Source: Escherichia coli (lineage in GTDB: Bacteria > Pseudomonadota > Gammaproteobacteria > Enterobacterales > Enterobacteriaceae). Taken from it: DNA of 3,518 nucleotides. The DNA lies in the NCBI RefSeq assembly GCF_003334355.1, contig NZ_QOWP01000070.1. One strand, given 5' to 3'. A program made the translations under genes and the position numbers. The stretch's first letter is position 1. Each line of letters begins with the position of its first letter. Below, piece after piece: positions 2,344-3,518 of this stretch. A model generated the notes under the pieces. The model saw only the letters and a list, made by a program, of their open reading frames with translations, was not told where the DNA came from and did no database searches.

Positions 2344-2398
2344 AAGAACAAAGCGCGTGAAAATTCCCCACGCTGAGATGGTTTACTGTTCTTCTTTT
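2344..2398 (+). terminator. Weak candidate stem-loop with T-tract downstream of tehB
   Basis: AAGAACA (2344-2350) pairs with TGTTCTT (2387-2393), enclosing an inner GCGTG/CACGC stem (2355-2359 with 2369-2373), followed by CTTTT (2394-2398). The outer stem is AT-rich and the loop large, so this is not a canonical intrinsic terminator. Confidence 0.2.
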
Positions 2399-2497
2399 CG
2401 GTAAGCATATTTTTTATCGAAGGGATGTGAAATTAATCACAGTAGTCGAAGTTTTTTAGCAGCTTAACTAACTGAAATTTAACTACTGATGATTGAC

Positions 2498-2543
2498 TTA
2501 GCCCCTTTTTCGGCATTGACTATGTCGTCTGAAAAGGGGCTAA
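2498..2543. repeat. Perfect 12-bp inverted repeat (TTAGCCCCTTTT / AAAAGGGGCTAA) separated by 22 nt, in the tehB-ydcL spacer
   Basis: Arms 2498-2509 and 2532-2543 are exact reverse complements. The 7-mer ATTGACT occurs as a direct repeat at 2492-2498 and 2515-2521, the second copy inside the loop. An A6 run follows, not a T-run. Confidence 0.5.
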
Positions 2544-2639: not shown

Positions 2640-3308
2640 ATGCGTACCACATCATTTGCGAAAGTTGCAGCTTTATGCGGCTTATTGGCTCTGTCTGGTT
2701 GTGCCTCTAAAATCACCCAGCCAGATAAATATTCTGGTTTTTTAAACAATTACTCTGATTTAAAAGAAACAACCTCGGCTACAGGTAAACCTGTTTTACG
2801 TTGGGTAGACCCGAGTTTTGATCAAAGCAAATATGACAGCATCGTCTGGAACCCAATCACTTATTATCCGGTACCGAAACCGTCGACCCAGGTAGGGCAG
2901 AAAGTTCTGGATAAAATTTTGAACTATACCAACACCGAAATGAAAGAAGCGATAGCGCAGCGTAAACCACTGGTTACCACCGCTGGGCCGCGTAGTCTGA
3001 TTTTCCGTGGGGCCATTACCGGTGTAGATACCAGCAAAGAAGGGCTGCAATTCTATGAAGTGGTTCCTGTTGCATTAGTGGTTGCGGGGACGCAAATGGC
3101 TACAGGCCACCGTACCATGGATACTCGCCTCTATTTTGAAGGTGAGCTGATTGATGCAGCGACTAATAAACCGGTTATCAAAGTCGTTCGTCAGGGCGAA
3201 GGTAAAGACCTGAATAACGAAAGTACGCCAATGGCTTTCGAAAATATTAAACAAGTTATTGATGACATGGCGACCGATGCCACCATGTTTGACGTTAACA
3301 AAAAGTAG
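2640..3308 (+). CDS. ydcL: Lipoprotein YdcL (DUF3313-type, function unknown); probable outer-membrane lipoprotein
   Basis: 222-aa ORF. The N-terminus MRTTSFAKVAALCGLLALSGCAS is a signal peptide with lipobox L-S-G-C (2691-2702); Ala at +2 predicts Lol sorting to the outer membrane. Good SD, TAG stop at 3306-3308. Confidence 0.9.
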   Translation: MRTTSFAKVAALCGLLALSGCASKITQPDKYSGFLNNYSDLKETTSATGKPVLRWVDPSFDQSKYDSIVWNPITYYPVPKPSTQVGQKVLDKILNYTNTEMKEAIAQRKPLVTTAGPRSLIFRGAITGVDTSKEGLQFYEVVPVALVVAGTQMATGHRTMDTRLYFEGELIDAATNKPVIKVVRQGEGKDLNNESTPMAFENIKQVIDDMATDATMFDVNKK

Positions 3309-3316
3309 TTCCAGAC

Positions 3317-3341
3317 GCGCCATCGTTAGATGGCGCTTTTT
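3317..3341 (+). terminator. Rho-independent terminator downstream of ydcL
   Basis: Perfect 8-bp stem GCGCCATC (3317-3324) with GATGGCGC (3329-3336), 4-nt loop GTTA, then TTTTT (3337-3341). It starts 9 nt after the ydcL stop. Confidence 0.6.
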
Positions 3342-3518
3342 ATCCGGTGCGCCGTAAAACCCCATCCTTCAGGGCGGGGATATAAGGCGCGGTTTTCCAC
3401 CTGACCAGGTGTTTGCTGTTGTTCAATGTATTGGCGGATGACGGATATTGGCGCACCTCCGCAGCTACTGGCAAAATAGCCAGGACTCCACAAAACGCCT
3501 TTGTAGTAATACCTGACT
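3326..3518 (-). CDS. tnpA: IS200/IS605-family transposase TnpA (Y1 HUH tyrosine transposase), C-terminal fragment; gene continues beyond the 3' edge of the window
   Basis: Minus-strand frame open from the window edge to TAA (complement of 3326-3328). It translates to VRYYYKGVLWSPGYFASSCGGAPISVIRQYIEQQQTPGQVENRALYPRPEGWGFTAHRIKSAI*. The stretch LWSPGYFASSCGGAPISVIRQYIEQQQ matches the conserved C-terminal helix of IS200/IS605 TnpA that carries the catalytic tyrosine, as I recall it from IS608 TnpA (not an aligned comparison). The ORF track omits it because no start codon lies within the window. Confidence 0.6.
   Translation of the reverse strand, partial: VRYYYKGVLWSPGYFASSCGGAPISVIRQYIEQQQTPGQVENRALYPRPEGWGFTAHRIKSAI
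3344..3518 (-). mobile_element. End of an IS200/IS605-family insertion sequence (IS609-like), partial; exact junction with the chromosome uncertain, roughly 3309-3349
   Basis: Contains the TnpA C-terminus and an adjacent imperfect palindrome. A TTTAT pentanucleotide sits at 3339-3343; this family inserts 3' of short AT-rich target motifs. An IS609 copy downstream of ydcL is known in E. coli K-12. Confidence 0.4.
3349..3390. repeat. Imperfect palindrome: 19-nt arms (3349-3367 and 3372-3390) with a 4-nt loop; candidate subterminal hairpin of the IS200/IS605-family element
   Basis: Pairing the arms gives 14 Watson-Crick pairs plus one G-T, with mismatches spread through the stem. IS200/IS605 ends carry imperfect subterminal hairpins of this kind, recognised by TnpA. 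It overlaps the last codons of tnpA. Confidence 0.4.

Follow-up and report, generated by a model that had tools for sequence, protein, structure and literature searches.

A single-copy stem-loop in the tehB–ydcL spacer is kept throughout the genus Escherichia and is most likely a terminator that lost its U-tract

The tehB–ydcL spacer and its inverted repeat

The window, that is, the whole 3,518-nt stretch of DNA analyzed here (contig NZ_QOWP01000070.1 of assembly GCF_003334355.1), is a stretch of the E. coli chromosome that carries ydcK on the minus strand (38–631), tehB on the plus strand (1744–2337), tehA between these two, and ydcL (2640–3308). The tehB and ydcL genes are separated by a spacer of 302 bp, in which RefSeq records hold no annotated feature. 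A canonical terminator, GCGCCATC-GTTA-GATGGCGC followed by a T-run, lies past the end of ydcL (3317–3343), and directly 3′ of it is the left end of IS609 (3344–3518), with a tnpA pseudogene on the minus strand. In strain FCI1, IS609 is missing from this place, and ydcO comes next after ydcL.

The ydcL gene is preceded on the plus strand by a promoter/leader block (2556–2639) that includes TTTTTTTGCCACAAC and is predicted to contain its promoter. The block harbors the elements TTTTTGYCACAAC and TTTGCTATAAC, the latter of which corresponds to an extended −10-like TGcTATAAC (2596–2604). A ydcL-based scan yielded 80 loci across the Enterobacteriaceae, and the block, spanning ~95 nt before the ydcL ATG, is conserved in all of them (80/80). 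A sigma-S holoenzyme peak has been found in the tehB/ydcL spacer by genomic SELEX (PMC5493296), and, under butanol stress, a rob mutant has less ydcL mRNA (PMC7537768).

Between tehB and this block, the spacer contains an inverted repeat consisting of a 5′ arm, TTAGCCCCTTTT (2498–2509), a loop of 22 nt (2510–2531), and a 3′ arm, AAAAGGGGCTAA (2532–2543). The arms are 100% complementary, and the perfect 12-bp repeat with a 22-nt loop that had been predicted here is thus real. The repeat starts 160 nt past the tehB stop codon, on the same strand, so that a tehB read-through transcript would carry the hairpin. Its 3′ end adjoins the predicted ydcL promoter block, 97 nt before the ydcL ATG. To judge chance occurrence, we counted perfect inverted repeats of at least 12 bp with a loop of 3–40 nt in dinucleotide-preserving shuffles of the window, and 3/300 contained one. 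By the same criterion, only 2/2000 shuffles of the tehB–ydcL spacer did, which indicates that a 12-bp repeat is rare by chance.

Folded as RNA, the hairpin reaches −24.4 kcal/mol on the plus strand (z = −7.0) and −18.2 kcal/mol on the minus strand (z = −4.2), and the whole tehB–ydcL spacer also folds unusually well (z = −5.5). The A/T pairs of the hairpin are located at the top of the stem and not at its base. In the E. coli plus-strand RNA, an additional inner stem between CGGCAT (2511–2516) and ATGTCG (2522–2527), with one G·U pair, may form within the loop. The loop between the perfect arms is 22 nt long and would shrink to 5 nt if this E. coli-only inner stem forms (5–12 nt with inner pairs). 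The heptamer ATTGACT, previously noted in the loop and in the upstream flank, occurs exactly twice in the whole window, at 2492–2498 and 2515–2521, the copies being 23 bp apart. Both are invariant across Escherichia, and the positions adjoining them vary. The TTGACT that they contain had been taken as −35-like, a suggestion that is not supported: by inspection there is no acceptable −10 at 16–18 bp, and the promoter scan calls nothing.

The stem is followed by a tail (2544–2555) of AAAA and then TTTATTTT. The run of six A residues described as following the repeat on the plus strand does exist (2542–2547), but the 3′ arm takes in its first two residues, which leaves four beyond the stem. A purine-rich run of 6–8 nt stands between the stem and a T-rich stretch in every Escherichia lineage, and hence there is no U-tract directly 3′ of the stem; the first 8 nt 3′ of it contain 3 T. 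In agreement with the original prediction that neither strand carries an intrinsic terminator here, a terminator scan of both strands of the window made no call at the hairpin, yet called the canonical terminator of ydcL (3317–3336 plus T-run).

Distribution and conservation of the stem-loop

The inverted repeat is a real RNA-type stem-loop, present in single copy and kept throughout the genus Escherichia. A search for further genomic copies of the repeat unit, which the original prediction had put forward, found one copy per genome: a 72-nt unit occurs at one place per genome (median) in 5407/5426 complete E. coli genomes, and the extra places in some genomes arose by local duplication. The version in the window, with its perfect 12-bp stem, is a minority allele, matched exactly over 72 nt in 1663 of the 5407 genomes (~31%). 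The K-12 version, found in 2984/5407 (~55%), differs by A2542G, which gives a U·G wobble on the plus strand; most strains, K-12 among them, thus have G at position 2542, where the window has A. O157 strains carry T2510G plus an additional A, and one strain carries A2532T. In strains 20Ec-P-124 (locus L083, 316–378) and FCI1 (L084), two tandem duplications in the 5′ arm and loop, one of 15 bp (AGCCCCTTTTTCGGC) and one of 21 bp (CTTTTTCGGCATTGACTATGT), have added 36 bp, indicating that the hairpin site is slippage-prone.

Beyond the chromosome, the unit has no match among phage records. Five matches labeled as plasmids are mislabeled chromosomes or chromosomal fragments, and the single match to a viral contig (giant virus) arose by chance and has an unrelated loop. 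No Rfam 15 family was matched at the window or in six related loci, the best overlapping score at the hairpin being 17.8 bits to a Tetrahymena snoRNA model with a gathering score of 70. Among the loci analyzed, the hairpin pattern was found only at the orthologous site.

The hairpin occupies the same site in five more Escherichia lineages (L002–L006), E. albertii among them. What is kept is a core stem of 9 bp, formed by GCCCCTTTT (2501–2509) and AAAAGGGGC, which is nearly invariant in Escherichia; the inner stem is not retained in the other species, and neither are the three basal pairs of the hairpin. By a hand tally, 2/18 core-stem positions vary among Escherichia versus 12/28 other hairpin positions (one-sided p ~0.03, also estimated by hand). 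The arm changes C2503T, A2532G, A2542G, and A2543G each produce U·G on the plus strand and C-A on the minus strand, and T2499C together with A2542G converts a T-A pair to C-G, the sole compensatory pair (2499/2542) within Escherichia. The proposed check by conservation and covariation thus showed the stem in five further Escherichia lineages, with one compensatory pair and four wobble changes. The core arms are invariant, and as a result true covariation cannot be demonstrated for the core stem.

Stem stability was compared with that of E. coli hairpin copies carrying an equal number of random substitutions. Each of the five species-level orthologues folds better than the mean of its mutated copies, the fractions being 0.0095, 0.10, 0.12, 0.16, and 0.26, which are mostly nonsignificant singly and come from lineages that are not independent. 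This provides modest evidence for stem maintenance. In L002 (Escherichia sp. MOD1-EC7003, 2320–2360) the stem has been strengthened to −26.0 kcal/mol. This lineage has also lost 128 bp of the spacer (window ~2344–2472), a deletion that reaches the upstream flank of the hairpin and leaves a spacer of Citrobacter length, and the hairpin is kept. Taken as a whole, the 46-nt hairpin shows 6–9 changes between Escherichia species and is not below the poorly conserved upstream spacer in this respect.

A gene relic in the spacer and the hairpins of other genera

In Klebsiella, Raoultella, Enterobacter, and Leclercia, ydcL is directly preceded by a gene for a periplasmic binding protein that resembles DppA. 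With a score of 920 bits, the protein falls short of the equivalog cutoff of the DppA model (1005), and its gene is accordingly a paralog of dppA. The final codons of the paralog, ending in FGKHIFYQVDIK and the stop, recur in E. coli at 2396–2436 (plus strand) as FGKHIFYRRDVKL, a relic of the last ~13 codons (FGKHIFY...) with in-frame stops just upstream. The relic marks the Escherichia spacer as a deletion remnant, which accounts for its length of ~300 bp compared with 140–175 bp in most other tehB-linked genera. In the genera that retain the gene, a canonical terminator lies between the stop codon of the dppA paralog and the ydcL block. In E. coli, the hairpin occupies the equivalent interval, but 61 nt past the stop position of the relic, as opposed to 6–20 nt.

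A hairpin at this place is widespread. In most of the 80 loci one ends 96–107 nt before the ydcL ATG. Where a gene other than tehB stands upstream of ydcL, that hairpin is a canonical terminator with a T-run, and tehB-linked Trabulsiella, Yokenella, and Pseudenterobacter also carry a canonical T-run terminator before ydcL. Between tehB and the ydcL promoter block, Citrobacter and Salmonella have a different plus-strand hairpin, which also lacks a U-tract (loci L007–L026, ~100–140 nt before the ydcL ATG in alignment A7, with the loop ATTTTTTTG) and ends ~98 nt before the ATG. Compensatory changes are observed in 8/9 of its pairs, and 94% of the cells are paired, compared with ≤50% when the pairing is slid. 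This hairpin thus covaries, which argues that some stem-loop has been selected at this place.

The Citrobacter/Salmonella hairpin is probably not the orthologue of the one in E. coli. A first cross-genus alignment, limited to 165 nt and then to ~67 nt upstream of ydcL, had given an apparent covariation (9/11 pairs compensatory; 37 G·U versus 8 A·C cells), which we withdrew as the product of a forced alignment of apparently nonorthologous hairpins. When the full spacers are aligned with MAFFT in either mode, the Citrobacter/Salmonella hairpin falls opposite the dppA-relic region of E. coli (2391–2436), and E. coli 2437–2548, hairpin included, is without a counterpart in these genera. Shuffles of the alignment scores favor the relic for most Citrobacter sequences and are equivocal for Salmonella. 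A covariance model of the Citrobacter/Salmonella hairpin missed 2498–2543 even with filters off, while it recovered both Citrobacter loci that had been left out of its training, with E values of 1e-8 to 1e-11. The E. coli-type motif does not occur before ydcL in any genus but Escherichia, despite the conserved promoter block. More generally, nonorthologous hairpins that share a position can, once aligned, give the false appearance of cross-genus covariation.

Several other features were seen in the spacer. A perfect CRP-consensus core, TGTGA-N6-TCACA (2426–2441), derives from the sequence around the stop codon of the gene relic and persists in the Escherichia lineages seen, except in L002, whose deletion takes it together with the relic; no promoter-like site was found at the standard distance from it. 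The core also forms the tip of a weak terminator-like structure followed by T6 (2417–2457, −8.6 kcal/mol), located upstream of the hairpin, at which some transcripts could be stopped before they reach 2498–2543. On the minus strand, a promoter-like TTCACA-16-TATGCT (2431–2404) is accompanied by a terminator-like hairpin with a T-rich tail (2373–2346), ~25 nt past the expected start. Together these two elements would define an RNA of ~50 nt just past the tehB stop; alternatively, the minus-strand hairpin may be what remains of the terminator of a convergent gene that has since disappeared. Three further candidates were rejected. A 39-codon open reading frame (2489–2608) is disrupted by indels in L004 and L006; an alternative partner for the 3′ arm, TTTTTTAGC (2453–2461), loses its pairing in the other Escherichia species; and an internal tandem duplication of 2378–2445 and 2461–2560 gives alignment scores no better than those of shuffles.

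Origin, role, and likeness to known systems

The reading we favor, with moderate confidence, is that the hairpin is a terminator-derived stem-loop without a U-tract, situated far out in the tehAB 3′ region, with the ydcL promoter directly after it. None of the three roles put forward originally has the strongest support. Most likely it is an ordinary feature, namely a terminator hairpin that no longer has its U-tract and remains in the scar of a lost gene. According to this scenario, a dppA-like gene that ended in an intrinsic terminator would once have stood between tehB and ydcL. Deletion of the gene would have left the 13-codon relic at 2396–2436, and the terminator hairpin would have stayed beside the ydcL promoter block, with the purine-rich run taking the place of the U-tract. 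Because the U-tract is absent, the hairpin cannot act as a classical Rho-independent terminator. Carried on tehAB transcripts that cross the spacer, it may block 3′-to-5′ exonucleases and so give these transcripts a stable 3′ end, and/or it may pause or weakly stop RNA polymerase short of the ydcL promoter. Its present role would then be that of a 3′-end barrier, a weak terminator, or an insulator before ydcL. Downstream of the stem in E. coli, C exceeds G by 7:1 over 32 nt (2544–2575) and by 14:7 over 57 nt (2544–2600). This bias is missing in Citrobacter and Salmonella (~1:1), and the stretch overlaps the ydcL promoter block.

A less probable alternative, though one to be taken seriously, is that the hairpin is a neutral relic, either the orphaned and decaying stem of the terminator that once served the lost dppA-like gene or some other leftover, which has no present function and persists only since the Escherichia lineages are little diverged. 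The loss of the U-tract fits this alternative, as does the nature of the spacer, a scar that holds the gene relic, the terminator-like leftover on the minus strand (2355–2373), and, in L002, a tolerated deletion of 128 bp. The 6–9 changes per 46 nt are like those of the neighboring spacer, neither the inner stem nor the three pairs at the base have been kept, two strains tolerate a 36-bp duplication in the 5′ arm, and the single-species stability tests are mostly nonsignificant. However, the substitutions avoid the core stem (2/18 against 12/28 positions by the hand tally), and those in the arms preserve pairing on the plus strand. All five species-level orthologues beat their mutated copies, that of L002 with a strengthened stem, and L002 retained the hairpin even though it lost 128 bp up to the hairpin flank. 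In addition, the sister genera keep a hairpin of their own at the same place through compensatory changes.

The protein-binding role that had also been considered, in which a regulator of the ydcL promoter recognizes the DNA palindrome GCCCCTTTT-N22-AAAAGGGGC, perhaps together with the ATTGACT repeats, at approximately −68 to −113, is improbable. In its favor, neither the core arms nor the two ATTGACT copies vary in Escherichia, in contrast to their neighbors. The site is upstream of a predicted sigma-S-type promoter, and ydcL does respond to regulators, being lower, for example, in the rob mutant (PMC7537768). Nevertheless, A2542G (55% of E. coli genomes), A2543G, C2503T, and A2532G break the symmetry of the duplex and keep pairing on the plus strand, that is, the arm changes are wobbles that maintain pairing only in the plus-strand RNA, whose fold is 6 kcal/mol better than that of the minus strand. 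Moreover, outside Escherichia no ydcL gene is preceded by the motif, even though these loci share the conserved promoter block. We know of no transcription-factor motif to which the palindrome corresponds.

It is similarly doubtful that the hairpin is no leftover but an Escherichia-specific regulatory module, comprising the stem-loop with the invariant ATTGACT at its apex and the other copy located 23 bp before it. In one possible variant of this idea, an RNA-binding protein or RNase would recognize the stem-loop, which has no U-tract, and thereby set the decay of the tehAB mRNA or gate read-through into the sigma-S-type ydcL promoter. Such a module may also have been gained as a single-copy insertion of ~85 nt between the 9-bp inverted repeats at 2453–2461 and 2540–2548.

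Less probable still is the proposal of a structured 5′ leader or small RNA, in which the hairpin would belong to the leader of a longer ydcL transcript or to an sRNA made from the Escherichia-specific segment, possibly under the control of the CRP-like site at 2426–2441. That site matches the consensus core perfectly, stands 57 nt before the hairpin, and has been conserved in Escherichia, and the folding of the spacer (z = −5.5) is consistent with a structured transcript. On the other hand, the scan finds no plus-strand promoter-like site between tehB and the hairpin, and what follows downstream is the ydcL block. The only −10-like hexamer recognized by inspection, GATGAT (2488–2493), would give the CRP-like site a position of about −66.5, where it would face the wrong side of the helix to activate, and a CRP-driven promoter for the hairpin was rejected on the basis of this spacing. 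There is also no U-tract to form the 3′ end of an sRNA and no Rfam match, and the 39-codon frame at 2489–2608 is broken by indels. A RIL-seq-derived table has only nodes for the tehB and ydcL coding sequences and no intergenic one. As to the spacer in general, Hfq CLASH data contain nothing for it, and the Adams 2021 and TERMITe supplements have no tehB or ydcL rows. Literature searches on ydcL, on tehB with CRP, and on tehB with Rho found nothing about the spacer.

Finally, the idea of a mobile or repeated palindromic remnant, whether a REP/BIME element, a MITE, or an IS200/IS605-type hairpin tied to IS609, draws on the perfect 9-bp inverted repeats TTTTTTAGC (2453–2461) and GCTAAAAAA (2540–2548) that bracket a block of ~80 nt without a counterpart in Citrobacter or Salmonella, and on IS609 itself, which starts ~800 bp downstream (~3344), but is very unlikely, as the hairpin is single copy in 5407 genomes, has no phage match and only chromosomal “plasmid” matches, is present in strain FCI1 with no IS609 next to ydcL, and has a bracketing repeat that is not kept in other Escherichia species. 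What stands of the relic that had been suggested here is a relic of another kind, a gene-loss scar with the hairpin at the place of the lost terminator.

As with REP/BIME elements, the hairpin is an extragenic palindrome in a 3′ region and could stabilize the upstream mRNA. However, those elements and MITEs are present in many copies, and the hairpin has one copy and no Rfam match; to our knowledge, it bears no resemblance to the REP consensus. Subterminal hairpins of the IS200/IS605 type, as in IS609, are located at the end of an IS and move with it, and this one does neither. The closest neighbor in position is the tehB-proximal hairpin of Citrobacter and Salmonella, which is likewise on the plus strand, without a U-tract, and between tehB and the ydcL block, yet differs in sequence and better matches the dppA relic of E. 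coli.

The terminator-derived stem-loop that we favor shares with the intrinsic terminators of the Enterobacteriaceae a stable sense-strand stem-loop with a G+C core, 3′ of a gene and before the next promoter, and it lies where most other genera carry a canonical one, 96–107 nt before the ydcL ATG. It differs from them in having no U-tract within 0–2 nt of the stem, a loop of 22 nt (5–12 nt if inner pairs form) where theirs measure about 3–8 nt, and A/T pairs at the top. A class of protective stem-loops without a U-tract, located at Rho-dependent 3′ ends, has been documented in E. coli (PMC6061677). The hairpin resembles this class in its stable stem-loop with no uridines after it, and the excess of C over G downstream in Escherichia would be a further likeness; it differs in its distance of 160 nt from the stop codon and in that the C>G bias is not common to the sister genera. 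Membership in the class is defined by a precise 3′ end of the steady-state RNA mapped to the base of the stem, by bicyclomycin-dependent read-through, and by trimming by PNPase or RNase II, and the likeness drawn here is one of sequence and predicted fold. If the favored reading is true, another E. coli transcription-unit end would be marked without a classical terminator, using the hairpin of a deleted gene. The tehAB–ydcL locus gains a structural element that was previously unannotated, one that opens no new biological question and belongs to a kind already known.
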